From: Nanobdellota archaeon
GTDB taxonomy: Archaea > Nanobdellota > Nanobdellia > Pacearchaeales > GW2011-AR1
DNA: 64,000 bases
NCBI GenBank assembly: GCA_038044205.1
Contig: JBBTAN010000017.1
Span: 175,315-239,314, forward strand
Reading direction: 5' to 3'
Of this stretch, positions 10,034 to 51,646 are shown piece by piece; position 1 is the stretch's first letter; each line of letters starts with the position of its first letter. The notes beneath the pieces were generated by a model. The model was not told where the DNA came from, did no database searches, and saw nothing but the letters and a program-made list of their open reading frames with translations. A program made the position numbers and the translations under genes.

Positions 10034-11167
10034 TTATTCTTTTCTTATTTTTATTCTCAAAGAATTATCAATATATTTATCATTTATCACAACTAAGTAT
10101 CCTCCACCACCTGCACCAGATAATTTATACCCAAGCACTTTTTCTCTATATTGTCCTAATAATTCTAATATATCTTTATTTACCATATTGGGAAACATAG
10201 CAATTTGCGCTTTAAATGATTTCCTAACATATTCTCCAAATTTAATTATATTTTTTTCTTTTATTGCTTCCCAACACCTATCTGTAACATCAGATAATAT
10301 ATTTACTTTTTCTTTATTTATATCAGTATTCAATAAAGGATCAAACGATTCTATCCTCGGATTTAATGGAACTAAATATATAGAATCCTCTATAAAGGAT
10401 AAAATATCATTGTCTAATATATTTTTAAAATCAATTGGCCAATAATTTCCATTATATTCTATTTTTGTTAAACCTGGATATATTACTCCAATAGCGTCCT
10501 GCGAGCCAGATATAAATTTTTTACCAGGTTCATTTTCTAACCTAAATGCCAATTTAGCTAATTTTTCTTGTTCCATGTTAGGTAATCGACTACAAAAGAA
10601 TTCTCTTAAAGCATTCCTTGTACTTGAGGCCATTCCGCTTCTATGATTAAATTCTATTGTAGGTTCAAGCGATATAACTACTACGGAGCCTCTACAGTGA
10701 CTTGAAACAAAAGGCTGGTCTAACCAACCACCTGCTAAATCTAAACGGAATGGAAGGGTGCAAACACCCCTTATTGACGTGCTAGATCTTATAGGTAAAT
10801 GAGATTTAGGCATCCTGTCTAAAACTATATATTTTATTTTATTTTCTTCGCATAATTTCTTTTTTTCTGGATAATTCCCTTCTTTATTTACAATTAAAAT
10901 ATCAGGTTTTATTGTTTGAAGCAATGGTTTAAAATCCAAGAATCCATTTCCTGGTGATATATATGCTTCTTTGACAAATTTTATTGATTGAATTATATAT
11001 AATCTTTCATCTTGAGTATATACTGGTGGTCTTCCTTTTAGATCATGTATTGTTTTATCAGAACCAAGAGCAACATATAGGTCTCCGTAGGATGATGCTT
11101 GTTCAAGGAAGGCTATATGGCCGGAGTGAGTAAAGTCAAAACAACCTGATACTAAAACTTTTGGCAT
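10034..11167 (-). CDS. Cytidylyl/adenylyltransferase-like domain fused to a GHMP-family sugar kinase (HddA-like)
   Basis: SGCFDFTHSGH (HxGH) and SSTSIR; PFRLDLAGGWLD, SGMASS, GSQD, KLSGAGGGG; GGAG SD upstream of ATG 11167. Confidence 0.85.
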   Translation of the reverse strand: MPKVLVSGCFDFTHSGHIAFLEQASSYGDLYVALGSDKTIHDLKGRPPVYTQDERLYIIQSIKFVKEAYISPGNGFLDFKPLLQTIKPDILIVNKEGNYPEKKKLCEENKIKYIVLDRMPKSHLPIRSSTSIRGVCTLPFRLDLAGGWLDQPFVSSHCRGSVVVISLEPTIEFNHRSGMASSTRNALREFFCSRLPNMEQEKLAKLAFRLENEPGKKFISGSQDAIGVIYPGLTKIEYNGNYWPIDFKNILDNDILSFIEDSIYLVPLNPRIESFDPLLNTDINKEKVNILSDVTDRCWEAIKEKNIIKFGEYVRKSFKAQIAMFPNMVNKDILELLGQYREKVLGYKLSGAGGGGYLVVINDKYIDNSLRIKIRKE

Positions 11168-11217
11168 GATAGAACTCCATTTCAAATAAAATAAATACAT
11201 TTCTATTGCCTATTTCT

Positions 11218-11284
11218 ATTCTTTTATTTTATATATTTTTCCTTTATGCTCAATCTATAGGAATACCAGAAAAAAGAATAGAAT
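11218..11284. promoter_or_regulatory. Divergent pair of AGGA-N18-GAAT promoter-like motifs
   Basis: Plus strand: AGGA 11259-11262 and GAAT 11281-11284. Minus strand: TCCT 11240-11243 and ATTC 11218-11221. Spacer is 18 nt in both; they lie between divergent genes. Confidence 0.6.
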
Positions 11285-11324
11285 ATAATTATGATTCTTT
11301 CTTTTTAAGCAAAGGAGATTTTTC

Positions 11325-11630
11325 TTGAATATGAAGGAATATGTAAAAAGTCAATTAGAAGAAATATTTAAATATAAATGGATTGAATCAGAAAAAGAAG
11401 GACATGATATTGGTGAAGATGCTGCTGCAAGGAAGTGGATAGAGTTATATGCTGAGAAATTTCGTCAAGAATACGATGAAATGGTAAATAGAATAATAAA
11501 TGAAGTATCTGATAAAATAGATTGTAATTGTATCCAAAGTAAGGATAGAATAAGGAAAATAATAGAAGAATTCTGTGTTATTTTTATTCGAGAAGAAATA
11601 AAAGGGAACAAGAAAATAGATTTGCTTTAG
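11325..11630 (+). CDS. Small protein with a DUF4032-like motif
   Basis: EEIFKYKWIESEKEGHDIG...AARKWIELYA; TTG start after AGGAG. Confidence 0.55.
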   Translation: MNMKEYVKSQLEEIFKYKWIESEKEGHDIGEDAAARKWIELYAEKFRQEYDEMVNRIINEVSDKIDCNCIQSKDRIRKIIEEFCVIFIREEIKGNKKIDLL

Positions 11631-11674
11631 TTGGAAGAAAGTCAGAATTTTGCTGTAGAATAACAGAATTCGTA

Positions 11675-12217
11675 GTGGAATTTGGCAAAGGAGAAAATGA
11701 AATGCGGAGAAAAGATTATCGTTTAGGTGACGTAATTTACAATTGGTATGAATTGATTGACAAGCCAGATATTATGGAACAATTAGATATTAAAGATTAT
11801 CTGATTGATAGATTTAAAAATATAAAATATTGGATTGATAATTCACCTCTAATTGAAGATAATAAAAAATTATTATATGAATCAGGTTGGGGGAAGTTGG
11901 AGATGCTTCGTAGAGTGCAGTTGAAATATGGTTGGGAAAAAATAAATTTATTATTGGCTGTACATAGATTGGATTTTAGGAATGCTTGTCTTCATTTACT
12001 TAAAAAGAAAAATGATCAGATAGCAAGTGTTATTGATGATACTAATTCAGCTAAGATGGCGTATAGTGATTTAGATCAGGTTAAATTATTAAAAAGTTTG
12101 CTTGAGGCTGCTTCTGTTATAGTTGATTCCATGCGTAGAAATAATATTACTATACCTGGCTCTATTTTAACTTTAGCTGCTTCTATTTGTGCAGAAAAGG
12201 AGACTGTAAATGGATAA
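11675..12217 (+). CDS. Hypothetical protein
   Basis: ORF with SD; overlaps the start of the radical SAM gene. Confidence 0.6.
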   Translation: MEFGKGENEMRRKDYRLGDVIYNWYELIDKPDIMEQLDIKDYLIDRFKNIKYWIDNSPLIEDNKKLLYESGWGKLEMLRRVQLKYGWEKINLLLAVHRLDFRNACLHLLKKKNDQIASVIDDTNSAKMAYSDLDQVKLLKSLLEAASVIVDSMRRNNITIPGSILTLAASICAEKETVNG

Positions 12218-13337
12218 TAAAATGAATTTTAGAATAAAAGAAAAAATAGGTGATGGTTGTTTTAATCCTTATGCATTAAGTATAGGGAGAAATGGAATGT
12301 TGAAATTAGAAGAAGTTCTATGGGAAGTAACTTCTAAATGTAATAAAAATTGTCATTATTGTGGATCGAAGAATGTTTTGAATAAAAAAGAATTGACTGA
12401 TGACGATAAAATAAAAATAGCAAAGCAGTTAGCTGATTATGGAGTCAAAGAAGTAGTGTTGTCGGGTGGGGAGCCAGGCTGTTTAGATACCAATACGCTA
12501 AAAGATATAATAAGGGTATTGAGAAATGGAAATTGTATAGTAAAAGTTGTAACTAATGGAAAAATATTTGAACATCAAATGGATTTTAGTCATTTTGATG
12601 CTATAGGTTTATCTGTAAATGAAATTAAAGATATAGAATTTTGTAAAGATAAAAGAGGAGTAAATACTGATAATTTTACTATTATTACAAATTTTGGCAC
12701 TCATAATATATGGGATTTTGACAAGTTGTATAATTTTGCTATGAATTATAATTGTTGGCAAGTTCAGTTAACTATGGGTGAACTGATGTTAAATGCTGAT
12801 GGGATTAAATATTTAAAAAATAAAATAAAAGATACCAATAAATGTTTTCAATTTAATCCAAGTGAAGGATATACATCTAATAAAATTATTTTAGCTGATA
12901 ATTTACAGGATGGCTATAACTGCACTGTTGGAATTAGGTCGTGTGGAATTACCTATACTGGAGAAGTTATAGCTTGTTTATCTGAAAGAAGCTATAGCGA
13001 AAAATTAAATATATATGGTAAGTTACCAGAGGATAGTATTGAAAATATCTGGGAGAATAAATTTAAGGATATTAGATTTAAGTGTAATAGAAAATGTTGT
13101 AGGGATTATATTAAATATCCTGATGTTGATAAAATTGTTGGAGATAAAGAATATGAGACTCTATCTTATCCTATTTCTCCAAATGATCCTGTTTACATTT
13201 ATGGAGTTCAAACTCCAAGCGATGTTGGTGACGATGAGGAGCCTATTGGAGGTGTAATGATTTACGGAGTAGCTGGTCCTAAAAATAATAAAAAAGTAGT
13301 AATGATGTATGGGGTATTTAGAAAAAATAAAGAATAA
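12210..13337 (+). CDS. Radical SAM/SPASM-twitch enzyme, splicease (PlpX)-like, with a C-terminal tail carrying three XYG motifs
   Basis: WEVTSKCNKNCHYCGS (CxxxCxxC), LSGGEP, VTNG, WQVQLT, CTVG..CGITYTGEVIACLS; tail VYIYGV/VMIYGV/VMMYGV. Confidence 0.8.
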   Translation: MDNKMNFRIKEKIGDGCFNPYALSIGRNGMLKLEEVLWEVTSKCNKNCHYCGSKNVLNKKELTDDDKIKIAKQLADYGVKEVVLSGGEPGCLDTNTLKDIIRVLRNGNCIVKVVTNGKIFEHQMDFSHFDAIGLSVNEIKDIEFCKDKRGVNTDNFTIITNFGTHNIWDFDKLYNFAMNYNCWQVQLTMGELMLNADGIKYLKNKIKDTNKCFQFNPSEGYTSNKIILADNLQDGYNCTVGIRSCGITYTGEVIACLSERSYSEKLNIYGKLPEDSIENIWENKFKDIRFKCNRKCCRDYIKYPDVDKIVGDKEYETLSYPISPNDPVYIYGVQTPSDVGDDEEPIGGVMIYGVAGPKNNKKVVMMYGVFRKNKE

Positions 13338-13368
13338 TTTTTATTTATTTTATTATTAGAGAGAAAAT

Positions 13369-13698
13369 ATGGCGAAAGTATACGTACATAAAAAAGATGA
13401 TCTTTCTAGTTCTAATGAATATTATGAGGATAAGAAAGGAATCTATTATTATACAAGTGATTCAAGTTCATCTGAAGAAGACCCTGATGACGAAGAAGAA
13501 TGGTCAAGTTCATCAGAAGAAGACCCTGATGACGAAGAAGAATGGTCAAGTTCATCATCTGAAACATCTGAAGAAGAAATAGAAGAAACATCATCTAATG
13601 AAGAAAAACAAGTAAAAGAAAAGAAAATAGAAAAGGAACAGGTTCCTTTAAAAGAAGAAAAAGATAATAGAACTGTGTTCGAAGCACTGGAGTTTTAA
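13369..13698 (+). CDS. Acidic Ser/Glu-rich orphan ending in VFEALEF
   Basis: First member of the shared C-terminal motif array. Confidence 0.75.
   Translation: MAKVYVHKKDDLSSSNEYYEDKKGIYYYTSDSSSSEEDPDDEEEWSSSSEEDPDDEEEWSSSSSETSEEEIEETSSNEEKQVKEKKIEKEQVPLKEEKDNRTVFEALEF
13462..13556 (+). repeat. 42-bp in-frame tandem repeat (~2.3 copies; SSSSEEDPDDEEEW)
   Basis: Units 13462-13503 and 13504-13545 differ at one position; partial third copy follows. Confidence 0.95.
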
Positions 13699-13711
13699 AA
13701 GGAATAATTTA

Positions 13712-14059
13712 ATGAAGCACTGGAGTTTAAAAAACAATGATATATTGCCAACACCAAAAGTAAATGTTAATTTGCCTATTTATAATAATCCAAAATGTCA
13801 GTATAGATACAAGGGTGAAGGGATGTTAGATTTTACTAATTCTGGATTAGAAAAGAAAGATAATAGTCCATTTAATGAAGTTATAAGTAAAGGCTATATA
13901 TTTGATAGTAATGAATTTAATTATTCTTGGTCAGATAATAAACTTATATTTGATTTAATCAAATTAAGTAAGTTGGTCAAATGTAAGAAAGAAAAGAAAA
14001 TAATTAAGCAGGTTGATAAAAAAGATAATAATAATATTTTTGATGCGTTGGAGATTTAA
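13712..14059 (+). CDS. Orphan ending in IFDALEI
   Basis: Shared C-terminal motif. Confidence 0.7.
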   Translation: MKHWSLKNNDILPTPKVNVNLPIYNNPKCQYRYKGEGMLDFTNSGLEKKDNSPFNEVISKGYIFDSNEFNYSWSDNKLIFDLIKLSKLVKCKKEKKIIKQVDKKDNNNIFDALEI

Positions 14060-14061
14060 TT

Positions 14062-14460
14062 GTGAATGAAAATGAAATAGATTTATATAATAAAGATTTA
14101 GTAAAGATTAATAAGGAATTTGAAAAATCATATATTTATTATGATAAAAAATTAAAAGAATCAGGTGTATATGATGAGAAGGTAAAAGAACAGAAACAAA
14201 TTGCGAAATTAGAAAAAATAAAGATGGAAGAAAAAGAGAAAGAAAATATTGAAATATATAATAAGAAGAAACAGGAGAAAGTGGAAATATTTCTAAAACA
14301 AAATCCAAAGGTAATCAATCCAACAAAGATAGTAAATTATGTAGATATTTTTGAAAGTTATGAAAGGGAACAGGAGCAGATAAAAGAAAAAATAAAATTA
14401 GAAAAATTCAATAAGAATAGACATAAAAGAGTTTCAGTTTTCGAGTCGTTGGAGTTCTAA
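14062..14460 (+). CDS. Charged coiled-coil-like orphan ending in VFESLEF
   Basis: GTG start 8 nt after GGAG; shared C-terminal motif. Confidence 0.75.
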   Translation: MNENEIDLYNKDLVKINKEFEKSYIYYDKKLKESGVYDEKVKEQKQIAKLEKIKMEEKEKENIEIYNKKKQEKVEIFLKQNPKVINPTKIVNYVDIFESYEREQEQIKEKIKLEKFNKNRHKRVSVFESLEF

Positions 14461-14462
14461 AC

Positions 14463-14804
14463 ATGCCAGACAATGAAATAGATGAAGAAATTACTCCAAT
14501 AGAAGGAGAAGATGTTTCTTTTTTAATTTCTATACAATCCGATAGTTTATATAAAGAAAAAATACAAACTAATCATAGAGAAAATTCTCTAAAAGAAAAG
14601 TTAAATGCGATGTATAAAAAATCAAATGAAACAATTAAGCAGGCGCAAAAAGAAGATGATGAATTTGTTAATAAAAGAAATAAGCAAAAGCAAAAAATAA
14701 TGAATGATCTTTTATCTGAATTTAGAATGGAACAGGATAAAGAAATAGAGAGAAGGAAAAGGATGAAAGCAGAAGGAACAATTTTTGAATCTTTGGAGAT
14801 TTGA
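14463..14804 (+). CDS. Orphan ending in IFESLEI
   Basis: Shared C-terminal motif; SD lies within the previous gene's LE codons. Confidence 0.75.
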   Translation: MPDNEIDEEITPIEGEDVSFLISIQSDSLYKEKIQTNHRENSLKEKLNAMYKKSNETIKQAQKEDDEFVNKRNKQKQKIMNDLLSEFRMEQDKEIERRKRMKAEGTIFESLEI

Positions 14805-15023
14805 ATGTATAATAACATGACAATGATAGAGTTTGAGCCAGAGGAAGAAAAATATACAGGTCCATCTATAGTTCCAGATGAAGCACTTGATATTATTTTC
14901 AATGATAAATTGACAGTAAAAGAAAGAATAAAATTATTAGATGAATTGCGAGAAAAAGAAGAAAAAGAAAATAAAAATATAGATATAACTGATAATAATA
15001 TATTTGGTTCTTTGGAGATTTAA
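14805..15023 (+). CDS. Orphan ending in IFGSLEI
   Basis: Shared C-terminal motif. Confidence 0.75.
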   Translation: MYNNMTMIEFEPEEEKYTGPSIVPDEALDIIFNDKLTVKERIKLLDELREKEEKENKNIDITDNNIFGSLEI

Positions 15024-15025
15024 TT

Positions 15026-15508
15026 ATGGGATATTTTCTGCAATCTATAGCTGATGAGACAGAGGAAAATATTGGAAATATGGATTCCCCTGGATATTTA
15101 ATGAGTAGCCCTTATGTCCCAGAAAATATAAAAATATTAAATGAAAAAGAATTAGAAAAATTAATAGAATTGCATGAGAAGGGAGTAATTAGTAGTCAAA
15201 CTTTATTTGATGGAGCAGGTATTGATTATAAAAAAGAGGTAGAGCAGTTACAATTAGAAAAAACAATATTTTCTACAGATAATAAGGAAATAGAAGATTT
15301 AATAAAAGTAAAATTAGAGGAATTGAAGTGGAAGTCAGGAGAGATAACTAAAGAGGATGTAGAGCATGTCTTTGAAGTTGCGGAGAAGGAAATAAAAAAT
15401 AAACAGGTTCAAATAAAAGAAAATAAAAGTATTCAACCTATAAGCCAAATAAAACCTTGTACAATTATAATAGATAATTATTCTATTTTCGACGCGCTGG
15501 AAATATAA
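15026..15508 (+). CDS. Orphan ending in IFDALEI
   Basis: Shared C-terminal motif. Confidence 0.75.
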   Translation: MGYFLQSIADETEENIGNMDSPGYLMSSPYVPENIKILNEKELEKLIELHEKGVISSQTLFDGAGIDYKKEVEQLQLEKTIFSTDNKEIEDLIKVKLEELKWKSGEITKEDVEHVFEVAEKEIKNKQVQIKENKSIQPISQIKPCTIIIDNYSIFDALEI

Positions 15509-15557
15509 ATAATTTATTTTTTATTAAAGAACCGGAATCTTCTAAAGGAGAAATTAA

Positions 15558-15887
15558 ATGAAAAAATTAGATGATACTGTTTATATTAGACCAGATGATT
15601 ATTTGAAGAAAGTTATTAAAACAAAGAAACCAAAGTTTTTATATGATAAAATTCCAGAAGGTGTAAGAGAACTTATTATAAAGGATACTCCAGTTGCTAC
15701 TTCTTTCAAAAAATTAGATGATGGAACTATAGTTGATAACAATACAGGACAGAAATATTTACGTAAAAAGACAAAAGCACAAAAAGATAAAGAAAAGGCT
15801 GACAGGAAAGATGAATATGAGCGTTCTCAAAAAAGGGCTGCGGTAGATGATGATTTTAGCATGACCGCTCATTTCTATGGTGATTAA
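15558..15887 (+). CDS. Hypothetical basic protein
   Basis: AAGGAG SD and ORF. Confidence 0.65.
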   Translation: MKKLDDTVYIRPDDYLKKVIKTKKPKFLYDKIPEGVRELIIKDTPVATSFKKLDDGTIVDNNTGQKYLRKKTKAQKDKEKADRKDEYERSQKRAAVDDDFSMTAHFYGD

Positions 15888-15951
15888 AAAATATAAATAA
15901 TATAATAAAATAATATAATAAATATAATTTTATTTATTTTTTATTTCATAT

Positions 15952-16003
15952 CCAACTGATCCGCTTCTAACCAAATAGATAGTCATTATCTAGAAGTGCA
16001 AGA
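15952..16003 (+). promoter_or_regulatory. CCAACTGATCCG promoter-like motif, copy 1
   Basis: CCAACTGATCCG-N15-ATAGTCATTATCT-N3-AGTGCAAGAA; near-identical architecture at 29751. Confidence 0.6.
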
Positions 16004-16043
16004 ATATTTTCTTTTTTGAAAGTGCAATTGAAAGGAAGCGGAA

Positions 16044-18470
16044 ATGTCTAGGAAACCAAGTCTTTATAGGAATCTCTCTGCTGCAACCTGCGAAAAAGAC
16101 GTTGAGAATGCTTGGCGTTCTTTTATTCAAGAAACATATAATGATGGTGCTTTCACCAGTCCCCACAAGTGTGATGGATTTCTTGAAAGTAAAGATATTA
16201 AAATGCTTTGTGAATTTAAGTACGACCAGAATATGAAAGAAGATAAAGATCTTCTTCCTATTGTTGGTCAGTCTATTTATTATATAAATAAAATGATTAA
16301 ATCAGGTGATAAGATTCCTAATGTTGTTTTTATTGGTGATAAAAATGAATGTATGGTTTTTCCCGCCTCTATTCTAATCGCTTACGCACAAAAGAATTAT
16401 GCTTTTTCATTGTCTCCTTGCGATGCAGGGAAAGATATTATTCTTATGTCAGATCTTAAGAATGATGTAAATATAAATTCTGTTGTTTTTACTATTGAAC
16501 AAGGATTCAAGTGGGAGACTGTTGATTATTTTATTAAGAGACAGGTGAAGCAGGTTAAAGCTGATCTTCCTATTACTCCTAATACTTTGCCAAATGTTTA
16601 CGAATATTGGTGCAAGAATGTAATGAAGGGTAATATGTCTGACAATGAAATAATTGAAGTATTCTTTAAAGTTCTAACTAAACCTCAAGAATGCTATCCC
16701 CATCCAAAGAAAGAAAATATATTGGTAGTTGGTGGTAATGAAATTAAAATTAGTAAGAAGGGGTTTAATGGATTTTTTAGTTTGTATAAAGAGACTCACA
16801 ATCCTATTGAATTGAGGGAATTGACTGCTAATAAAGACAGGTTGGTTGTGGAGATGAAGCGTCGTAGGAATGGAGAGTATTTTACTCCTGCTGATTGGGT
16901 CAACGAAGCCCATAAGATGCTCACAGAGCATCTGGGAGAGAATTGGAAGGAAGAGTATGTTGTTTGGGACTGTTCTTGTGGAACTGCTAACCTGACAAGA
17001 GATTACAAGTTTAAAGAATTATATTTAAGTACTTTGGGACAGACCGATATAAATATTATAGAGGAGGCTGGATATAGTCCAGAAGCAACTAAATTCCAAT
17101 TTGATTTTTTGAATGATGACCTGTCTAAATTACCTGATGGACTCAGGTGGTCTCTTGATAGTGGAAAGAAATTTGTTTTTCTTAATAACCCTCCGTATGG
17201 AACTGCTAATGATTTTGGAGCAAAAGGAACGGAAAAGTCTGGTATTGCTTCAAATACAATGATAAATAAACAGATGAAAGAAAATAATATTGGAGAATCA
17301 AGTCAGCAATTGTATGCCCAATTTATGTATCGCATAATGGATGTAGTTAAAAAATATAAGATAAAAAATTCAGTTATGGGTACGTTTAGCAATGTATTGT
17401 TCATGTGTGGAGAATCTTTTGAGGGATTCCGTAAAAATATAAATATGGGCTATGTAGATGGAATGATTTTTAAAGCATCTCATTTTTCTGATGTATCAGA
17501 TTCATGGGGGATTGCTTTTACTGTTTTTAAATCTTTAAATTTTGTTAATTCTAAAAATTTTATAGTAAAAATAAAAGATTATAGTGATGAAGGTCGTATC
17601 GTAACTGTCATAGAGAAAGAATTATATAATCTTGATGGAATTGAATCTGCTTCTAAATGGGTTCGTGAACCAAATAAAGGTATTAAAACTTTGGATTATC
17701 CACAGATGACTAATGCTACATGTATTAAACCTGATGGGAGAGGACGTATTTGTTGTGATTCGTTAGGTTATTTTTTAAGTAATGCTAACAATACTTATGA
17801 TAATCTTACATCTGTTGCTTTATTTTCATCTTGTCCAGCTAAAGCTAATGGTCTTTCTATAACTAAAAATAATTTTGAACGTTGTATTGTTTTATATTCT
17901 GCACGTAAACTTATTGAACCAAATTGGATGAATCAAAAAGATGAATATATGGTTCCTAATACTAATCATCCTGATTATCAACAATTTGTAAATGATTCTA
18001 TTATATATTCTTTATTTAATTCAGCAAGTAATCAATCCTCTTTGAGACAAATAGAATATAAAAATAAAAAATGGGATATTGTTAATAATTTCTTTTTTAT
18101 GTCTATTAAAGAAATTCAGGATTTAGCTATTGAATATAATTTTAATGATTTATATAATGATACTATTTCCCATCCTGGAGATAGATACGTATATAATCAA
18201 CTAAATAATATTATTTTATCTCCAGATGCTAAAGAAGTTCTTGATATGGCGAGAAATTTGATTATTGATTCTTTTCAGTCTAGGCAGGCTGCAAGTAATA
18301 TAAAACCAGAGATGCACCTACAAGCATGGGATGCTGGTTGGTATCAGATAAAGAACGGGATATTAAAGGAACAGTTTAAGGACAAGTATAAAGAATTTAC
18401 TGATTTATATAAATCTTTTAGTGATAGACTTATATTGTTAGTGTATGAGTTGGGATTTTTGAAGAAATAG
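16044..18470 (+). CDS. Fused nuclease-N6-adenine methyltransferase (Type IIG/IIC restriction-modification-like)
   Basis: N-terminal E..V...CDGFL...CEFK (PD-(D/E)xK-like); GEYFTP, VWDCSCGTANL (motif I), NNPPY (motif IV). Confidence 0.8.
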   Translation: MSRKPSLYRNLSAATCEKDVENAWRSFIQETYNDGAFTSPHKCDGFLESKDIKMLCEFKYDQNMKEDKDLLPIVGQSIYYINKMIKSGDKIPNVVFIGDKNECMVFPASILIAYAQKNYAFSLSPCDAGKDIILMSDLKNDVNINSVVFTIEQGFKWETVDYFIKRQVKQVKADLPITPNTLPNVYEYWCKNVMKGNMSDNEIIEVFFKVLTKPQECYPHPKKENILVVGGNEIKISKKGFNGFFSLYKETHNPIELRELTANKDRLVVEMKRRRNGEYFTPADWVNEAHKMLTEHLGENWKEEYVVWDCSCGTANLTRDYKFKELYLSTLGQTDINIIEEAGYSPEATKFQFDFLNDDLSKLPDGLRWSLDSGKKFVFLNNPPYGTANDFGAKGTEKSGIASNTMINKQMKENNIGESSQQLYAQFMYRIMDVVKKYKIKNSVMGTFSNVLFMCGESFEGFRKNINMGYVDGMIFKASHFSDVSDSWGIAFTVFKSLNFVNSKNFIVKIKDYSDEGRIVTVIEKELYNLDGIESASKWVREPNKGIKTLDYPQMTNATCIKPDGRGRICCDSLGYFLSNANNTYDNLTSVALFSSCPAKANGLSITKNNFERCIVLYSARKLIEPNWMNQKDEYMVPNTNHPDYQQFVNDSIIYSLFNSASNQSSLRQIEYKNKKWDIVNNFFFMSIKEIQDLAIEYNFNDLYNDTISHPGDRYVYNQLNNIILSPDAKEVLDMARNLIIDSFQSRQAASNIKPEMHLQAWDAGWYQIKNGILKEQFKDKYKEFTDLYKSFSDRLILLVYELGFLKK

Positions 18471-18599: not shown

Positions 18600-19364
18600 A
18601 TGAAACATGTAACAATTGGTATCTGTTTTATTTTTTTTGCTGGCTTTGCCTATGGACAGAATGAAAAAGATCCAGTAAAGTCTAAGATAGAAGCGGCTTC
18701 AACCCTTATGAAGGTCAAGCAATGGGATGAAGCAAAAACTATTCTTGAGTCTATCTTTGATGGAAATGAAGATAATAGAGAGGTAGTAGTAGGATTGGCG
18801 AGGTGTGAAGAAGGACTAAAAAATAGTGGTAAAGCCTGTGAATTATATAAAAAGTCGCTTGAACTTGCAAATGGAGATGATAATTTTAGTGATTCAAAAG
18901 AAGGTAAATTATTTATTGATAAATGTAAGAAAACAATTGTAAAATTGGATGAAGGTAAAGCTGTTCTGTTGAAGTATGCTGAAGAAATGGAAAAAGAAGC
19001 AGAAAAATTAAAAGAAAAGAATAAATATGCCTATGATGAAATAATGATAATAGTTGAAGAAATAAAGGGTGAAAAAGAGGAAATTGTAGAAAAGAAAGAT
19101 GCAAAAGAAGGAAAACGTAATAAAAAAGGTAGTAAAATTTCTGGTAAATGGGATGTTTCTGGATCGTGGTCTGGATATCTCGAATTTGATGGCAATTCAG
19201 TAAAAGCAATTGATGGTATTGGAAATAATAGTGGAATATGGGTCTATAGTAATAATGTAATAAATATTAAATGGAATAGTGGTGGTTCTTGGGATGTAAA
19301 TATTAAAACTAATAAAATTGTTGGTTCTGATGGAACTAGGGCGTCTTGTAAGAAAAGAGATTGA
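18600..19364 (+). CDS. Secreted/periplasmic TPR-like protein
   Basis: Signal-peptide-like N-terminus (MKHVTIGICFIFFAGFAYG); TPR-like helices (GLARCEEGL..SGKACELYKKSLE). Confidence 0.6.
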   Translation: MKHVTIGICFIFFAGFAYGQNEKDPVKSKIEAASTLMKVKQWDEAKTILESIFDGNEDNREVVVGLARCEEGLKNSGKACELYKKSLELANGDDNFSDSKEGKLFIDKCKKTIVKLDEGKAVLLKYAEEMEKEAEKLKEKNKYAYDEIMIIVEEIKGEKEEIVEKKDAKEGKRNKKGSKISGKWDVSGSWSGYLEFDGNSVKAIDGIGNNSGIWVYSNNVINIKWNSGGSWDVNIKTNKIVGSDGTRASCKKRD

Positions 19365-20507: not shown

Positions 20508-21298
20508 TTAGAATACCTTGTTAAACCAGTTTTAATATCAGTCTTTGTTTCAATTTTATATTTTTCTTTAGCATATGTAATATCACATACCCAATTATTG
20601 CTATCATAACTTCGCATGTTATCAATTTTTTTATATTTTATTTCTATGTCTAAAATTGTTTCTAATATTTTTATTAATTCTAAATTAGAATATTGTTTAC
20701 CAGTACCTATATTTACGATATCCCCATTATATTGTCCAATATCTAATAATTTTATTATTGAATCAATAAAATCATCTATATATACCCAATCATGTACAGG
20801 TTCTTCAACTAATTTTACTATTTCTTTTTTGTATATATTTTTAAAAATAGTTGGTAAAAATTTACATGATTTTTCATATGGCCCATAAAGTGTAAATGGT
20901 CTTATTATTAATGCTGGTAGATTGAAATATCTCGAAAAGGATTGTGTTAATAATGTTGCACATCCTTTTGTTGCTTCGTAAATAGTACATGGATTTATTT
21001 TCATTTGTTCATTAATTGGTGTTTTAACTCTGCCATATTCTGATGAAGAACCTATGTATATAAATTTTTTTACTTTCCACTGTACGGATTTTTCTAATAA
21101 TTTGTAAGTTAAATATATATTACTTTTATACATGTTACATATATCATACATTTCTGCTGCGGTGTGTATTACTATATCTGGAGTGATATTGACATCATCT
21201 ATATTATGTTTTTTTGTAAACTCTATAATTTCACCAGATAGTTTAGGGATAAGATTTTTAGATATAAACCCATCAGATCCCGTGACAAGTATTCTCAT
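20477..21298 (-). CDS. NAD-dependent epimerase/dehydratase (extended SDR)
   Basis: ILVTGSDGFI, GSSSEYG, YEATK, RPFTLYGP. Confidence 0.9.
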   Translation of the reverse strand: MRILVTGSDGFISKNLIPKLSGEIIEFTKKHNIDDVNITPDIVIHTAAEMYDICNMYKSNIYLTYKLLEKSVQWKVKKFIYIGSSSEYGRVKTPINEQMKINPCTIYEATKGCATLLTQSFSRYFNLPALIIRPFTLYGPYEKSCKFLPTIFKNIYKKEIVKLVEEPVHDWVYIDDFIDSIIKLLDIGQYNGDIVNIGTGKQYSNLELIKILETILDIEIKYKKIDNMRSYDSNNWVCDITYAKEKYKIETKTDIKTGLTRYSKWIKQNINNI

Positions 21299-21942
21299 AA
21301 TTTTTCCAATATAACCAAATAAGAAGGAATATCTTCTAATATTATTTTAAACATATTTTCTTTCAATATCTGTTGATAGCGTTCATGACATCCATGAATA
21401 TGTCCTTTAGGTATCATATCATGTAAACAAAGATATCCTCCTCTAACAATTTTATTTTTTACTAAATTATAGCCATTCCATTGCGCTATTGGAAAATCCA
21501 TATCAATTAAAACATAGTGAAGTTCAGGAATAAAATCAATATTTGTATTTTCTGTTATCAAACCTTTAATAAGATAAGTATTAAACAATCTTTGTTTATC
21601 TAATTCATTTTTTATATAATCATATTTACAATGTTCTGTGCCGTAATTTATCTTATCATTATACCAATGTTCCATACAATGTGCTGCAAAAGAATTAACT
21701 CCACCTGCTTCAATAGTATGTGGGCAAATAGTCGCTAATTCAATAGGGTGAGTCTCGAACGTATCAAATCCATAGATAAATCCACGTCCTTTCCATATAG
21801 TTCCTATATTCTGAATACCACCGCCATAAGCTACTCCCATTTCAGCACCACACAATATTCCTTTAAATTTTTTTAGACATAGTTCAACTATTGCTCGTGT
21901 ATGGGTACTTGCTCCATTTATATCATTAAGTTCTTTTAACAT
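21295..21942 (-). CDS. TylF/MycF-like sugar O-methyltransferase
   Basis: EMGVAYGG, YGFDTFE, LIDMD, GGYLCLHD. Confidence 0.7.
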   Translation of the reverse strand: MLKELNDINGASTHTRAIVELCLKKFKGILCGAEMGVAYGGGIQNIGTIWKGRGFIYGFDTFETHPIELATICPHTIEAGGVNSFAAHCMEHWYNDKINYGTEHCKYDYIKNELDKQRLFNTYLIKGLITENTNIDFIPELHYVLIDMDFPIAQWNGYNLVKNKIVRGGYLCLHDMIPKGHIHGCHERYQQILKENMFKIILEDIPSYLVILEKL

Positions 21943-24423: not shown

Positions 24424-25683
24424 ATGGATTATAGATTTAGAGTATATCCAACACCAGAACAAGAAGAATTAATAAATAAAACATTTGGTTGTGTTAGATT
24501 TATCTATAATTGGGCATTAGAAACAAAGAGTGGAGCATATAGATATAATAAAGAAAGATTAAGTTGTTATGATTTAAAAAATAAATTACCGAGTTTAAAA
24601 GAAGAGAATGAATGGCTGAAGGAAGTAGATAGCCAAGCATTACAAATAGCAATTGAGAATTTAGATAATGCCTACTATCATTTCTTTATTAGACTAAAGA
24701 AAGGAATTAAAGGTAAGAAATTAGGTTTTCCTCAATATAAAACAAAGAATAAGAGTAAGAAATCATATACAACTAATAATACAAATAACAGTATAAGGAT
24801 AGAGGAAGGGAAATTAAAAATACCTAAAGTAGGATTATTAAATATTGTTTTTCATAGACATGTAAAAGGAATAATAAAATCAGTTACTATATCATGTACA
24901 TCATCAGGTAAATATTATATTTCTATAAAAACAAGGATAGAGGAAAAGGAGATTAAATATGTTGTAAATAAGGATAATGTAGTTGGTTTAGATATGTCTT
25001 TCTCTGAATGTTCTGTAGCGTCAGATGGAACGAGAGCCAAGTTCACGAGATTTTACAGAAAATCAGAGAAGAAGTTAGCCAAAACAAATAGAAGAATGCA
25101 CAAAAGGGACAAAGGATCAAAGAATAGGGAAAAAGCAAAGAAAAAATTAGCTATTGCACATGAGAAGGTAGCTAATCAAAGAAAAGATTTTTTGAATAAA
25201 TTATCTTATAGTATATCTAATAAATATGATGTAGTAATTGTAGAAGATATAGATTTAAGTGCTATGAAAAAGAAGGGGAAGAGAAGAAAATATGGTAAAT
25301 CTATATCTGACATCGGATTTGGTGAGTTGAGAAGACAATTAGAGTATAAATTATTAAGGAAGGGTAAGATATTTATTAAAGCACCCAGATTTCTTGCTTC
25401 ATCTCAATTATGTTCTTCTTGTGGATATAAGAATAAAGATGTCAAAGATCTATCAATAAGGGAATGGGAATGTCCCAAATGTAATGCTAAACATGATAGG
25501 GATGTCAATGCGGGACTTAATTTAGTTAATTGGTATAAGAGTACCGCTGCTGCGGCGGGAATTCACGCCTATGGAGACAAGACCTCTACTAGCTATCATA
25601 AGTTAGCAAGCCCTGTCAGTGAAGTAGGAAAAATTGCTCAACAATCGTTGATTGATCAAGCCCCCACCTTTAGGTGGGGGTAG
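24424..25683 (+). CDS. tnpB: TnpB RNA-guided endonuclease (IS200/IS605 family)
   Basis: YRFRVYPT..Q..INKTFGCVRFIYN; RuvC VGLD, VIVEDI, HDRDVNA; zinc finger CSSC/CPKC. Confidence 0.95.
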   Translation: MDYRFRVYPTPEQEELINKTFGCVRFIYNWALETKSGAYRYNKERLSCYDLKNKLPSLKEENEWLKEVDSQALQIAIENLDNAYYHFFIRLKKGIKGKKLGFPQYKTKNKSKKSYTTNNTNNSIRIEEGKLKIPKVGLLNIVFHRHVKGIIKSVTISCTSSGKYYISIKTRIEEKEIKYVVNKDNVVGLDMSFSECSVASDGTRAKFTRFYRKSEKKLAKTNRRMHKRDKGSKNREKAKKKLAIAHEKVANQRKDFLNKLSYSISNKYDVVIVEDIDLSAMKKKGKRRKYGKSISDIGFGELRRQLEYKLLRKGKIFIKAPRFLASSQLCSSCGYKNKDVKDLSIREWECPKCNAKHDRDVNAGLNLVNWYKSTAAAAGIHAYGDKTSTSYHKLASPVSEVGKIAQQSLIDQAPTFRWG

Positions 25684-25688
25684 TTGAC
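25657..25688 (+). mobile_element. IS200/IS605 right-end hairpin and 3' end of the TnpB reRNA scaffold
   Basis: CCCCCACC-TTTA-GGTGGGGG hairpin (25661-25680) followed by TAGTTGAC; no tnpA nearby. Confidence 0.8.
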
Positions 25689-25708
25689 TAAAATAAAGGC
25701 TAATAGCG

Positions 25709-25945
25709 ATGAGTAGAATTTGTGAAAAACCTTGGCGTAATTTAATTGTATGGGCAACAGGATATGTTTGTTTTTGCTGTGAAGGTGAAGCAATTGGAAA
25801 TATTTCTTTATCGTCTGTGGAAGAAATATGGAACAATTCTAAAGCACAGGCAATTAGAAGCGGTATCATAGAGGGTGGAGAAAAATTACATCCTATGTGC
25901 AAGAACTGTCCTTGGGTAAAAGATTATAAATATATAACAAGCTAA
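25709..25945 (+). CDS. Stand-alone SPASM/twitch Fe-S domain protein
   Basis: CEKPW..LIV...GYVCFCC...IGNI...VEEIWN...CKNC. Confidence 0.8.
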   Translation: MSRICEKPWRNLIVWATGYVCFCCEGEAIGNISLSSVEEIWNNSKAQAIRSGIIEGGEKLHPMCKNCPWVKDYKYITS

Positions 25946-25947
25946 CC

Positions 25948-25985
25948 CCAATTGATCCGCGCCTATCTCTTTCTTATCATATTAT
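25948..25985 (+). promoter_or_regulatory. CCAATTGATCCG promoter-like motif, copy 3
   Basis: Intergenic; ATTAT 21 nt downstream; precedes the AAA ATPase. Confidence 0.55.
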
Positions 25986-26050
25986 AGAATAGAAAAAAGA
26001 AAATAGTGTATTTTTGTAGTGTAAAACCATTTGAATGAAAGGAAACAAGG

Positions 26051-28335: not shown

Positions 28336-28986
28336 ATGAAATATAATCCAGACACTAATTATATTGGTTTTTTTGATGAAGTAGGAAGAGGTTGTCTATT
28401 TGGACCTGTAGTAGTTGGATTAGTTCTTCTACCAGAAGAAGAAATAAATAATAAAATAGAAGGTGTAACAGATTCTAAAAGAATGACAGCTAAATTAAGA
28501 AGAAAACAATATTTTATTCTTAAAAAGAAAGTATTATATCAATTGGGTTATTCTACGGTTGATGAAATATATGAATATGGAATAAATAAATGTATTTTTA
28601 AGTCAATGAAGAGGGCATTAAATAAATTTTTAGAATTATATAAAGATATAAAAATAAATTATTTTATTATGGATGGTTGTGAGGATTTTGGTGGGGAGAT
28701 ATTAGGTATTCCTTTGAAGGCAGAGATTAAGGCTGATTTGAATAGGCCAGGGTGTTCTGCGGCATCTGTATTGGCTAAAGTGGCAAGAGATAAATGGATG
28801 GAGATGGTGGGAGTCAATTATAAAGAATATAATATTATTAGTAATAAGGGTTATAGTTCAAGGGGACATATAGCTGCAATAGTTAAATATGGGCCAAGTG
28901 ATTTACATAGGACTATGTATGTCAACACGTTAATGAAAAATTTAATGAAAAAAGGAATTATGGCCAAATGGGTAATGGATAAATAA
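28336..28986 (+). CDS. rnhB: Ribonuclease HII
   Basis: DEVGRGCLFGPVV, DSK, MDG, KAD, AASVLAKVARD, NKGY. Confidence 0.92.
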   Translation: MKYNPDTNYIGFFDEVGRGCLFGPVVVGLVLLPEEEINNKIEGVTDSKRMTAKLRRKQYFILKKKVLYQLGYSTVDEIYEYGINKCIFKSMKRALNKFLELYKDIKINYFIMDGCEDFGGEILGIPLKAEIKADLNRPGCSAASVLAKVARDKWMEMVGVNYKEYNIISNKGYSSRGHIAAIVKYGPSDLHRTMYVNTLMKNLMKKGIMAKWVMDK

Positions 28987-28987
28987 A

Positions 28988-29254
28988 ATGGAAAGTAATA
29001 AAGAAAAAATTATTGTTAGCTGGACAGATAATGGTAGAATTGTAGAAAAAGAGATATCTGTAGATGTGAGTACGAATTATTTCAATGAAAAAGTTGTTAA
29101 ATATAGAGGCGGTTATCGGTCATTAGACTATAGAAAAGGATTCTATATTCTTTATGTAGGAGATGTAGTCAATTTTAGTTTAGAAGCATTCGATTTAATT
29201 GGAGAAAAAGAAAAATATATAAATTATTCTATTTTTGGGGCATTAGAAATATAA
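28988..29254 (+). CDS. Orphan ending in IFGALEI (dispersed member of the C-terminal motif family)
   Basis: Same C-terminal motif as the genes at 13369-15508. Confidence 0.7.
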   Translation: MESNKEKIIVSWTDNGRIVEKEISVDVSTNYFNEKVVKYRGGYRSLDYRKGFYILYVGDVVNFSLEAFDLIGEKEKYINYSIFGALEI

Positions 29255-29268
29255 AAAGGAAAAAGTAG

Positions 29269-29466
29269 ATGGTAAAAAATAATAAATTAAAAGTAACAAT
29301 TAGATATATAATGGATGGCGAGATAAAAGAAAGTAAGGATTTATTTTTTAAGGTAATAATGAATGGCCAAGGAAAAGAATTTATTGAGTATAAAGGAATT
29401 AAGTGGTTATTAAAGAAAGAAAAAGGTGTAGATGTAATTGATATCTATGATGCTATTCCAATTTAG
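29269..29466 (+). CDS. Hypothetical protein ending in IYDAIPI (possible degenerate motif)
   Basis: ORF with AAGGA SD. Confidence 0.55.
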   Translation: MVKNNKLKVTIRYIMDGEIKESKDLFFKVIMNGQGKEFIEYKGIKWLLKKEKGVDVIDIYDAIPI

Positions 29467-38441: not shown

Positions 38442-38672
38442 ATGAATAAAAATAAATATCAGAATTCTGAAGATGTAATGAGAGAAATTGGTTTTGTTTT
38501 TTCTGATCCAACTGATATTTATTTAGAAAAATCGGATAAAAATGAATCATCTCCAATTATAGAAGGAGAAGATTATGATATGTCAAAAATGCATGAAAGA
38601 TTAGAAGCATTGCATAAATTATCTCCAGAAGAAAGGAAAGATGCTTTTGTTTCTATTGGTAAAAATAAATGA
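38442..38672 (+). CDS. Hypothetical protein
   Basis: ORF in a run of small genes. Confidence 0.5.
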   Translation: MNKNKYQNSEDVMREIGFVFSDPTDIYLEKSDKNESSPIIEGEDYDMSKMHERLEALHKLSPEERKDAFVSIGKNK

Positions 38673-38884
38673 ATAATAAAAAATTTAATAATGTAGTTGA
38701 TAAATTTTTTAGAAAGGCTTTTGCTATAGATATAGGAAAACCAGTAATTGACGATATGTTATATGAGCATCAAGTTCCAAATAGTAAAAAAGTGAATAAG
38801 AATCGTATAAAAAATAAAAAGAAAGTTCTATTAGAAAAAATAGAATACGATCCTTTTTCTAATATAAAATCATTAGAATTTTGA
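38669..38884 (+). CDS. Hypothetical protein ending in NIKSLEF (possible variant of the C-terminal motif)
   Basis: SLEF-stop. Confidence 0.5.
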   Translation: MNNKKFNNVVDKFFRKAFAIDIGKPVIDDMLYEHQVPNSKKVNKNRIKNKKKVLLEKIEYDPFSNIKSLEF

Positions 38885-49804: not shown

Positions 49805-51646
49805 ATGGCTAAAAATAAAAACAAAGTGGATTTAGAAAATTTAATGGAAGTTCTCCGTGCGGGGAAAATTGAAATCGAGCGTAAGTTCGGAAATCATATT
49901 CGCACTGTAGTTGATATTATGACATTCTGTTACGATAAAGAATATCTTAATTTCACGGGCCAAGGAATAAAATTAAGAACAGCACAAGAAGTTGCGCTTA
50001 AATTATTTTATTTCGGGTCTCCAGGAAATGAAGATATAGATTTAACTGAAGAAGAGGAAAAATGGTTAAGGGAGCAATCTGATTACGTAGATGATAAATT
50101 TATTGGCCATGAATACATGGTTGAGAAATTAGTAAGATTAAGACAATTAAGAAGAGCAGGTAATATAAAACATACAGATATGTTCCAAGAGCTTGTTCTT
50201 GTTTTCGGACGAAGAGCAGGTAAAACCTTCCTGTGCAGTGTTATAGCCGCATACGAGACCTATAAACTGCTTGCAGCCCCTAATGGATGTCCTCAAAAGA
50301 TGTATGGGCTTCCAGAGACAGCAGAGATATTTATAGTCAACTGTGCAAGATCAAAAGAACAGGCAACTATTCTTTTTAATGAGATAGCATCAAGAGTAAG
50401 GAGTGGTCCTTATTTTAAGGGAAGAATAAATAAAGATAGTAGTGTAAATGAAATTAGAATGTTTACAGAAAATGATAAGAAAATAAATAAGGAGTATGGC
50501 GATATTCCTGTTAAGGGAACAGTTATATTAAGGTGTGGGCATTCATCATCTGAATCCCTTCGTGGTACTGCTGCCATTCTTGTTATATTTGACGAATTAG
50601 CGCATATGTTAGATACTCAAGGTGGTTCTTCAGGTGCTGAAATTTATAGAGCACTTGTTCCTACAACAAAGACGTTTCAATTAGGTGGAGATCCAACTAA
50701 ACCAGAAGGTAGAGTAGTATCTATTTCAAGTCCTGGACCTAAAAGTGGTAAATTCTGGGATTTATTTAGACAGAGTTTAGATCCTAAAATGGGCAGAAAA
50801 ATGCTCATGTCCCAACTTCCTACTTGGGCAGTAAACCCAACCATAACAAGGGAAGCATTAGAAGAAGAATTCCTTAGAGATCCAGAAGGCGCAGAAATGG
50901 AATTTGCCGCCAGGTTTGCAGGAACAGCGTATTCTACATTCCTAAATCCAGATTTAGTTGATGCTTGTATGTCTCAATCTATAAAAACCATGTCTCATCA
51001 AGGTGAGCCAGGTAAAGCCTATTTTATGCATATAGACCCCGCATTAAATAATAATATATATGCTTTAGCTATTGGGTATTGTGAAGAATATGTAAATGCT
51101 ATGAATGAACGTAGAAGAAGAGTATATATTACTCATACTCATAGATTTGTTCCAGAGAGTGGAAGAGATGTTCAGATGGAAGATGTGGAAAAAGAAATAA
51201 TAAGATTGTGTTTAAACTATAAAATAATTAGTATTACATTTGATGTATGGAATTCTGCCCAAACAATTCAGAATTTAAGGAAAAAATTAGCAATTCCTAT
51301 TAAATCAACTACATTCTCAAATATGTATAAACAACAGATATATGGTAGTTTGAAAGAATTAGTAGTTAGAGGTGATCTTGAATTTTTCCCTGATAAACAT
51401 ATTGCAGGTGAATTAAAAGGATTAAGAGTTAAGTATTTATCTCATGGATTTAAGATAAGACCAGATTTTAAGAGTGATGTTCCTACAGATGATTTGGCTG
51501 ACTGTATAGCTGCTATTTGTTTTCTAAGTACAGAAAAAGTTATACATAGAAAATTACCTAAACCTACTGTTGCTTTTGGTGGTGGAAATATAAAAAATCA
51601 TATGGCTCAACTTCATAGTAAATATGACAGACAATTTAGTATATAA
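49805..51646 (+). CDS. terL: Terminase large subunit
   Basis: LVFGRRAGKT Walker A, VIFDELAH Walker B, ISSP coupling motif, MHIDPA, TFDVWNS, TDDLAD nuclease residues. Confidence 0.9.
   Translation: MAKNKNKVDLENLMEVLRAGKIEIERKFGNHIRTVVDIMTFCYDKEYLNFTGQGIKLRTAQEVALKLFYFGSPGNEDIDLTEEEEKWLREQSDYVDDKFIGHEYMVEKLVRLRQLRRAGNIKHTDMFQELVLVFGRRAGKTFLCSVIAAYETYKLLAAPNGCPQKMYGLPETAEIFIVNCARSKEQATILFNEIASRVRSGPYFKGRINKDSSVNEIRMFTENDKKINKEYGDIPVKGTVILRCGHSSSESLRGTAAILVIFDELAHMLDTQGGSSGAEIYRALVPTTKTFQLGGDPTKPEGRVVSISSPGPKSGKFWDLFRQSLDPKMGRKMLMSQLPTWAVNPTITREALEEEFLRDPEGAEMEFAARFAGTAYSTFLNPDLVDACMSQSIKTMSHQGEPGKAYFMHIDPALNNNIYALAIGYCEEYVNAMNERRRRVYITHTHRFVPESGRDVQMEDVEKEIIRLCLNYKIISITFDVWNSAQTIQNLRKKLAIPIKSTTFSNMYKQQIYGSLKELVVRGDLEFFPDKHIAGELKGLRVKYLSHGFKIRPDFKSDVPTDDLADCIAAICFLSTEKVIHRKLPKPTVAFGGGNIKNHMAQLHSKYDRQFSI

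Follow-up and report, generated by a model that had tools for sequence, protein, structure and literature searches.

A C-terminal motif held exactly at the stop codon in eleven dissimilar proteins of a huge tailed phage: a candidate docking peptide

In bacteriophage T4, the C-terminal tails of gp43, gp33, and gp55 are short, hydrophobic and acidic, and interchangeable, and they bind one ring-shaped hub, the gp45 clamp (PMC2988020). The clamp-binding epitope of gp55 is preceded by a charged linker of variable length (PMC2988020), the tail of gp43 reads EKASLDFLFG (PMC6212786), T4 DNA ligase carries an internal copy of the epitope, and gp33 has 112 residues in all (PMC2988020, PMC6212786). A second T4 system concerns the internal proteins, which share a 10-residue capsid-targeting sequence and have divergent mature parts, related phages carrying other sets; the targeting sequence suffices to load foreign proteins into the prohead and ends in a prohead protease site (PMC9026906). 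The prohead protease of SPN3US cuts after AXE (PMC10052503). Here, we describe a short C-terminal motif, referred to below as the tag, that ends at least eleven small phage proteins, six of which are encoded in tandem at 13369 to 15508 of a 64,000-nucleotide (nt) window. The window is C17:175315-239314, where C17 is one of the 124 contigs of a 1,002,338-base bin assigned to an archaeon, and coordinates given without a contig name refer to the window.

Several other peptide signals are pertinent to the comparison. The PCNA-interacting protein (PIP) box has the form Qxx[ILM]xx[FY][FY]. Class II ligands of PDZ domains end in hydrophobic-x-hydrophobic-COOH, the carboxylate clamps of tetratricopeptide repeat (TPR) domains read EEVD and the peroxisomal targeting signal PTS1, and the tip of the bacterial single-stranded DNA-binding protein (SSB) is DDDIPF. 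Encapsulin cargo-loading peptides, with an approximate consensus of hydrophobic-x-I-G-S-L-K/R near the C-terminus, occur on unrelated cargo, bind the inner face of an HK97-fold shell, and need not be exactly terminal. In mycofactocin biosynthesis, the conserved piece of the precursor MftA is its very C-terminus, whose final Val-Tyr is the target of the radical S-adenosylmethionine (rSAM) enzyme MftC. Enzymes with a SPASM or twitch domain can also act on sugars.

The tag and its position at the stop codon

The six tandem open reading frames (ORFs) all lie on the + strand, at the coordinates and with the C-termini given in a preliminary description of this DNA. ORF 1 (13369..13698, 109 amino acids (aa)) is rich in Ser, Asp, and Glu, is very acidic, and ends in TVFEALEF; ORF 2 (13712..14059, 115 aa) ends in NIFDALEI; the Lys/Glu-rich ORF 3 (14062..14460, 132 aa) ends in SVFESLEF; ORF 4 (14463..14804, 113 aa) ends in TIFESLEI, with its TGA stop abutting the in-frame ATG of ORF 5; the acidic ORF 5 (14805..15023, 72 aa) ends in NIFGSLEI; and ORF 6 (15026..15508, 160 aa) ends in SIFDALEI. 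The gaps between the six are 0 to 13 nt. The further copies reported from elsewhere in the window were also recovered. A seventh strong member (28988..29254, +, 88 aa) ends in SIFGALEI and is located 2 nt after an RNase HII gene (28336-28986), and 38669..38884 (+, 71 aa) ends in NIKSLEF and is counted here as a core-only member. For a third candidate (29269..29466, +, 65 aa) the reported end IYDAIPI was confirmed, but its membership is doubtful as it lacks the core and scores below zero against the tag profile. Our search added three core-only members, all on the minus strand: C51:13632-13952, which ends in DLALEI, C65:10211-10492 (93 aa), which ends in ESALEF, and C104:2028-2660 (210 aa), which ends in ELALEI. 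Taken together, the minimal tag is [AS]LE[IF]-COOH, and in seven proteins it extends to [NST][IV]F[DEG][AS]LE[IF]. The eleven tagged proteins are spread over four contigs and six loci, so that tandem duplication alone is insufficient to account for them.

The distribution of the motif was quantified using the ORF sets of a simple ORF caller, with no gene finder. The full motif [IV]F[DEG][AS]LE[IF] ends seven of the 4003 ORFs of at least 40 aa in the whole bin (all frames, overlaps included), and all seven are in the window. Six-frame translation of the bin yielded 15 copies of the core F.[AS]LE[IFLV]. The seven strict copies all stand directly before a stop, as the preliminary description had stated, and none of the other eight does. 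On the contigs with phage-like composition (see below), [AS]LE[IF] ends 11 of 635 non-overlapping ORFs of at least 45 aa, compared to 0.029 expected from the internal frequency of the core (5 in 111,284 residues); on the remaining contigs it ends 0 of 863 ORFs, with 0.080 expected. The genome-wide scan of C-termini that had been proposed at the outset thus finds the tag enriched there. Every ORF that ends in LE[IF] has Ala or Ser at position −4, and the tag is never placed a few residues short of the chain end. When a profile was built from the seven strong tails, the members scored 23.5 to 25.4, the best internal 8-mer scored 15.8, and no other C-terminus exceeded 4.3; the next-best C-termini all end in [AS]LE[IF] and all reside on contigs of the same composition class. 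Chance or a DNA repeat as the origin of the tag is ruled out by the stop-exact position, the enrichment, and the synonymous codon variation described below. Other recurrent tails, YSI (five copies) and RSK (five copies), have no further shared context and were set aside as noise or small paralogue pairs.

Across the eight tag positions of the seven strong members, 2 to 6 distinct codons per position encode one to three residues. The tag Leu is encoded by CTG, TTG, or TTA, and the Ala/Ser by GCA, GCG, TCG, or TCT. A ribosome-binding signal is overlaid on part of this variation. At four of the five array junctions (14046-14062, 14447-14463, 14791-14805, and 15010-15026), Leu-Glu is encoded by TTG GAG, which doubles as a GGAG ribosome site 6 to 8 nt before the next start. 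One tag has CTG GAG 20 nt ahead of the next start, and the gene that follows has its own AAGGAA site. The two ends that have no coupled downstream gene encode Leu-Glu as CTG GAA and TTA GAA; the former is that of ORF 6, which consequently lacks GGAG. Since these codons occur where no gene follows, the residues are kept independently of the ribosome site. Selection on the tag acts at the protein level, which agrees with the earlier interpretation of the synonymous variation as selection on a free C-terminal peptide. A promoter and terminator scan of 11000-16200 was uninformative.

The bodies that carry the tag are diverse. The proteins are 71 to 210 aa long, their net charge ranges from −25 to +7, and the region ahead of the tag is charged, of low complexity, and variable in length. 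After the last eight residues had been trimmed off, pairwise BLASTP of the bodies in a 10-sequence database gave a best E-value of 0.069, with no pair significant, which upholds the initial statement that the bodies are dissimilar. A weak similarity between 28988-29254 and 29269-29466 (E 0.13), together with an N-terminal NEID common to ORFs 3 and 4, hints at shared ancestry, and the word "unrelated" is therefore used here in the sense of "without detectable relationship". The sole Pfam match above cut-off, Clathrin_lg_ch on 14463-14804 (22.7 bits versus 22), is marginal and probably compositional. Searches with the 160-aa and 210-aa members among 5.8 billion proteins recovered only the queries themselves, and a search with the 210-aa member against 1.84 billion representatives returned only a 44-residue stretch in a 1940-aa protein. 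The language-model neighbours of the 160-aa member were "phage minor capsid protein (fragment)" and portal-family clusters with a score of 0.93, which shuffled proteins reach in 4 to 10% of cases. ORF 1, with a net charge of −25, contains an internal duplication in which SSSSEEDPDDEEEW occurs twice; DNA mimics and Ser-rich proteins with heavy modification typically have such a composition.

In a second protein family of the same phage, it is an N-terminal motif that has outlasted the body. Ten proteins of 69-175 aa start with MK[IYFC]R.GFVSNSS[ST].S[FY]. Seven of the genes are on C51 (e.g., 21056-21565) and the others are C17:6083-6475, C17:129643-130098, and C17:168908-169318. Without the first 18 residues, detectable similarity is left in three subgroups only.

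The carrier phage and the search in other genomes

The window includes a gene for a large terminase subunit (49805..51646, +; phrog_2 match, E 4.7e-26), and the carrier is therefore a tailed phage, in line with the phage origin that the preliminary description had presumed. The terminase matches 333 phage records, those among the matches listed being annotated as terminase, and the best E-value (6e-43) belongs to the 485-kb uncultured phage LR745208.1. In tetranucleotide use, C17, C51, and C65 are mutually correlated at 0.995 or above, versus 0.93 to 0.97 with the other large contigs, which correlate at about 0.99 with their own pool. The composition class of C17 consists of ten contigs with 373,441 bp (C17, C51, C65, C40, C20, C104, and four small ones) and encodes mainly small orphan genes on one strand. 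Nine tRNA genes are present on C17 and six on C51, all of which read A/T-ending codons. These 15 genes are located at C17:32653-45249, C17:109857-119414, and C51:6094-32822, and include two Leu-taa, three Lys-ttt, and one Ile-tat. Shine-Dalgarno-like sites precede 250 of the 395 genes of at least 100 aa in this class (63%) versus 130 of 587 on the other contigs (22%). The other contig class contains PCNA and PolB, lacks a beta clamp, and is from a genus whose genomes measure 0.5 to 0.9 Mb. The bin combines about 373 kb of a huge phage with a small archaeon, and because the usage of ribosome sites differs, the co-binned archaeon is probably not the phage host. The tagged 160-aa protein, the rSAM enzyme encoded upstream of the array, and the C104 member are each recorded as identical on a 499,814-bp contig in other assemblies, from which we infer one phage of about 0.5 Mb, part of which is absent from the bin.

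A eukaryotic giant virus as carrier was also considered, with the nuclear export signal, FFAT (two phenylalanines in an acidic tract), and LC3-interacting region motifs as the corresponding candidates. It is ruled out by the Shine-Dalgarno-like sites and the tailed-phage terminase. A search for the capsid of nucleocytoplasmic large DNA viruses gave no match, although its control matched nowhere either, and the mimivirus promoter octamer is not enriched on C17. Elsewhere in the window, a 3550-aa ORF (51694-62346) comes directly after the terminase gene, ahead of which a protein of 1368 aa (43756-47862) with three Laminin_G_3 domains is encoded. Two overlapping ORFs, 32396-32827 and 32790-33779, align with consecutive segments of the N6_Mtase profile (positions 23-89 and 104-204), which suggests that 32396-33779 is a split or frameshifted DNA methyltransferase.

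The tag was then sought at the DNA level in other genomes. The pattern RTNTTYGRNKCNYTNGARWTHTRR has seven matches in the bin and one in 400 other genomes of the same order, the latter ending in TGG with no stop. Across 2.9 million viral contigs, a stricter pattern (I...I followed by TAA) gave 17 single matches, whose open frames span 8 to 46 codons; in one genome each of 185,579 species, it gave 102 single matches. Of these 102, one ends an ORF of at least 100 aa, a 68-aa ORF present in two bins accounts for two more, and the remaining matches end frames of at most 37 codons from the first Met. The one substantial ORF is a 255-aa frame on a 2351-bp contig of Fodinibius sediminis (L169) that ends in KIFEALEI and may be a chance occurrence or a prophage gene. 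Five whole viral records with rSAM homologues yielded one match (G422), in an 8-codon frame inside an opposite-strand gene, and LR745208.1 yielded two loose matches, which is about chance level, neither of them ending a listed ORF. Single-protein scans of the viral contigs with the rSAM enzyme, the 160-aa protein, the C65 rSAM enzyme, and the terminase led nowhere, as did a comparison of the C65 rSAM enzyme with 50,697 phage records. A homologue (59%) of the 808-aa methyltransferase-like protein encoded near the array is present on a viral contig of 332 kb, with no tags nearby. Four sequencing runs contain this DNA, all from one groundwater study and none listed as an RNA run; since they may be its source, they offer no independent support. 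Within the genomes searched, the tag appears to be private to this phage. With none recovered elsewhere in these searches, the evidence of function is the upkeep of the tag in eleven dissimilar proteins of one genome. A full-text search of the published literature found no description of the motif, nor of a C-terminal tag shared by a set of huge-phage orphans, which is in agreement with the earlier remark that no described system has this motif, although such a search is not proof.

Possible partners and rival readings

The tag has the hallmarks of a docking peptide, namely an obligate end of four to eight residues, a terminal hydrophobic residue after Leu-Glu, a flexible charged linker, and many dissimilar clients. 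On this basis, we infer that it binds a partner, and we interpret the tail as a docking or addressing peptide that is recognized at the free C-terminus by one common receptor, a reading to which we assign an even chance of being right. As a short linear motif, the tail would function solely when it forms the free end of the chain, would do so on at least eleven dissimilar small proteins, and would be presented on a charged, low-complexity linker. One receptor would recognize it together with its alpha-carboxylate, and a changeable, fast-evolving client set would thereby be brought to one place. The preliminary description had proposed a docking or addressing code of this kind, which is still the best reading, but the clamp and capsid hubs named for it are unconfirmed on the phage contigs. 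Among the possible receptors, loading into the prohead or virion is ranked first, although taken by itself we hold it to be unlikely. A clamp-like hub of replication or transcription and, beside it, an unfoldase or protease adaptor are ranked next, and each of the two is doubtful.

A number of findings weigh against docking. No receptor was found on the phage contigs. On those contigs there is no beta clamp, and the gp45-type family PF02916 is unmatched in the bin; PDZ domains are likewise missing from them, with PDZ_2 and PDZ_6 matching only the host-like contigs C56 and C34; and neither a capsid protein nor a prohead protease was recognized on them, nor an HK97-type capsid in the bin. For three of these families, however, the control genomes gave no match either, which makes those three blanks hardly informative, and the phage is incomplete in the bin. 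The only nearby TPR protein (18600-19364) has a signal-peptide-like N-terminus, which the tagged proteins lack and which makes it unlikely as the hub. The 76 proteins that flank the six loci include no recurrent partner, the only similar pair being glycosyltransferases. Both SPASM-positive rSAM genes of the phage directly precede tagged genes. The tag occurs in no other searched genome, and conservation across evolution is thus not demonstrable from one phage and one study. The motif also departs from its nearest counterparts. The T4 clamp motif LDFLF (PMC6212786) does not match [IV]F.[AS]LE[IF]. The T4 capsid-targeting sequence is N-terminal and removed, whereas the tag is C-terminal in 11 of 11 proteins and a cut after its Glu would take one residue. 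The PIP box is not matched either, given that the tag has no Gln and a different hydrophobic spacing. Host PCNA was set aside as the hub, since PCNA (found only on the host-like contig C52) and PolB are on contigs of the other class and the PIP-like tail of the archaeal PolB, QTKLSDF, differs from the tag.

The genes around the array include sugar and methyl-transfer genes and those for the 808-aa methyltransferase-like protein, the TPR protein, TnpB, an AAA protein, RNase HII, and an SNF2 helicase. The TnpB-type gene and the gene for a CDC48/PAN-like single-domain AAA protein, which has a 235-residue N-terminal part without known family, occupy 24424-27484, a stretch of raised GC content (0.36 versus about 0.28) that is possibly a recent insertion. 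The AAA protein had been named as a candidate hub; the gene is present, in this stretch beside TnpB, but its role is unconfirmed. A different C-terminus is found in a 93-aa phage protein encoded at C65:7082-7363 (minus strand), which ends in GEGDDIPF. This end resembles the bacterial SSB tip, although the protein is otherwise unlike an SSB. The tail could serve as a decoy or for a second kind of docking, it hints at a bacterial host, and C-terminal docking tails may thus be a habit of this genome.

The main alternative concerns the enzyme encoded directly upstream of the array (12210..13337, +), an rSAM protein whose Pfam domains are Radical_SAM, Fer4_12, and SPASM only, with the radical SAM core beginning at about residue 35. 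Its gene ends 31 nt before ORF 1. The tagged 93-aa ORF of C65, which ends in ALEF, comes immediately after a same-strand gene that combines methyltransferase, Radical_SAM, and SPASM domains; the SPASM match of the latter (E 0.0014, 19.3 bits) is below the cut-off of 21.5, but its product has nine Cys in the last 110 residues. The phage-like contigs hold eight rSAM genes, seven of which were screened with profiles (C17:139554-140267 was left out). Only two gave SPASM hits, and no others precede tagged genes, which amounts to two of eight rSAM genes and two of six tag loci. Both adjacencies would arise by chance with a probability of roughly 1e-4 to 1e-2, a post-hoc figure based on 6 loci and 635 ORFs. 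The tail could accordingly be read as the recognition or modification site of rSAM/SPASM enzymes acting at or near the free C-terminus, a protein-level relative of the maturation of ribosomally synthesized and post-translationally modified peptides (RiPPs), and a need for the free carboxylate would account for the strict stop position. Such a role may coexist with docking. The wider enzyme family weighs against such a link. Not counting itself, the window enzyme has 91 homologues with identities of 35 to 50%, and 53 loci with homologues at 36-49% identity (best tblastn segment) were inspected, 13 viral and 40 metagenomic, some present twice; the viral ones are on contigs of 14 to 373 kb, with terminal repeats on four of the five largest. 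None of the 53 loci has a tag-like tail or a shared C-terminal tail of any kind, and of 41 window proteins tested against them, only the rSAM enzyme itself has homologues, the other 40 having none. The family instead keeps its own C-terminal repeats, of the form [MVI][YS][GA][VT] (MMYGVF, MSYGVT, VYGV; three [IM]YGV repeats in the window enzyme), in a low-complexity tail of variable length (13170-13337 and L032-L084), and Tyr331 is invariant in 32 aligned sequences. This suggests a separate function, and the protein has the look of an enzyme that carries its own substrate, or a docking peptide, as a fusion. No PqqD/RiPP recognition element (RRE)-type domain was detected in the enzyme, a 180-aa protein encoded upstream matches no family, and no curated maturase family was matched above cut-off. 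In addition, the architecture of a RiPP precursor is reversed, in that a constant C-terminal piece follows a long, variable body; no rSAM gene neighbours four of the tag loci; and both enzymes are in sugar/methyl-transfer clusters, where SPASM or twitch enzymes may have sugars as substrates. A predicted complex of rSAM residues 1-310, SAM, and three [4Fe-4S] clusters with the 72-aa tagged protein (alignments included) scored 0.07 against a mark of 0.32 and is no evidence either way. The suggestion of the preliminary description that the tag is a follower peptide of the upstream rSAM enzyme has thus gained a second rSAM/SPASM gene that precedes a tagged gene, but the 53 homologue loci are tagless, and we regard modification by these enzymes as an unlikely, if serious, explanation.

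Two further readings dispense with a receptor. The tagged genes could be the remnants of one fast-diverging paralogous family in which a last strand or helix is kept for structural reasons, for example to self-assemble or to pack onto the rest of the same protein. Six members are in tandem with gaps typical of tandem duplication, the NEID start of ORFs 3 and 4 and the weak similarity of 28988-29254 to 29269-29466 point the same way, and the ten-protein family of this phage, in which a 17-residue N-terminal motif outlasts body similarity, shows that such divergence has a parallel here. The body similarity among members is not significant, however, and their lengths and net charges span the wide ranges given above. 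The four core-only members are in unrelated contexts, as a group on other contigs (38669..38884 is itself in the window). Four to eight residues behind a low-complexity linker are too short for a folding core, and a structural element would tolerate residues after the motif, of which none was ever found. We therefore judge shared descent with structural retention to be quite improbable. The remaining possibility is that the conserved end acts in translation, either as a nascent-peptide termination signal or as a side effect of the ribosome-binding site that the following gene uses. The GGAG at four of five array junctions, in a phage that commonly uses such sites, is what this would predict. 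It is very hard to reconcile with the amino acids being kept where the nucleotides differ (CTG GAA, TTA GAA, and CTG GAG at 20 nt), with the remaining tag positions, which are unconnected with any ribosome site, and with the varied contexts of the C51, C65, and C104 members, and we give it next to no weight.

The docking reading also admits a processed form, in which the address code is chemically altered at its free end as well; we consider this rather unlikely. In one variant, the SPASM-type enzymes encoded upstream would modify the [AS]LE[IF] terminus of at least eleven clients, as a C-terminal counterpart of RiPP maturation. In the other, a "clip to release", an AXE-specific prohead protease would remove the single last residue and so free cargo that this residue and its carboxylate had kept docked inside the prohead. 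If true, either variant would be an undescribed form of phage protein sorting or maturation.

Regardless of the mechanism, which is a candidate reading among rivals, the observation is solid. Huge phages consist mostly of orphan genes, and here a strict label of four to eight residues groups eleven of them into one functional set without homology. If the receptor is the prohead, the label would mark a fast-evolving arsenal that is injected along with the DNA, comparable to the internal proteins of T4, and would give engineers a portable loading tag. If it is a clamp or unfoldase, the tag would show a huge phage wiring many small regulators to one hub, and if the rSAM enzymes act on the tail, a new protein modification would be at hand. 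The tag is also a direct experimental handle, as the peptide can serve as bait or have its carboxylate blocked. Finally, a per-genome count of over-represented terminal k-mers needs no homologues and could reveal private address codes in other large viruses.

Comparison with described systems

Among maturation systems, the rSAM/SPASM maturases of mycofactocin (MftC/MftA), pyrroloquinoline quinone (PQQ), sactipeptides, and ranthipeptides resemble this locus in having a SPASM gene followed by small genes with a short conserved peptide. The present case differs in its unrelated bodies of 71-210 aa, in a tail without Cys, in that no RRE was found, and in the absence of pairing at the 53 homologue loci. 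The modules that read a carboxylate share with the tag a signal of three to six residues, recognition of the free C-terminus only, many clients, and a hydrophobic end. The sequence L-E-[IF]-COOH fits the class II PDZ pattern in 11 of 11 members, with PDZ domains present only on host-like contigs, and the SSB tip differs from the tag. The G-[SA]-L centre of IFGSLEI and IFGALEI recalls the approximate consensus of encapsulin cargo-loading peptides; the encapsulin peptides have K/R after Leu where the tag has Glu, and no shell gene was recognized here.

The closest parallels come from T4. The capsid-targeting sequence is, like the tag, a short terminal peptide on small, charged, otherwise divergent proteins. 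As a cleavage site, [AS]LE would fit the AXE of SPN3US in 7 of 11 members, while the other 4 have SXE; the T4 site, (L/I)xE, is not matched, and no protease gene was found. Like the tag, the T4 clamp tails are short, hydrophobic, and acidic, form the very end of the chain after a variable linker, and occur on several mutually unrelated proteins, small and acidic ones included. T4 has a gp45-type clamp, none of which was found in the 373 kb of this phage in the bin; the eleven clients here exceed the T4 number, and four core-only members keep just four residues. The principle, terminal peptides that bring unrelated phage proteins together, is known from T4, and the motif described here is new in the literature searched.

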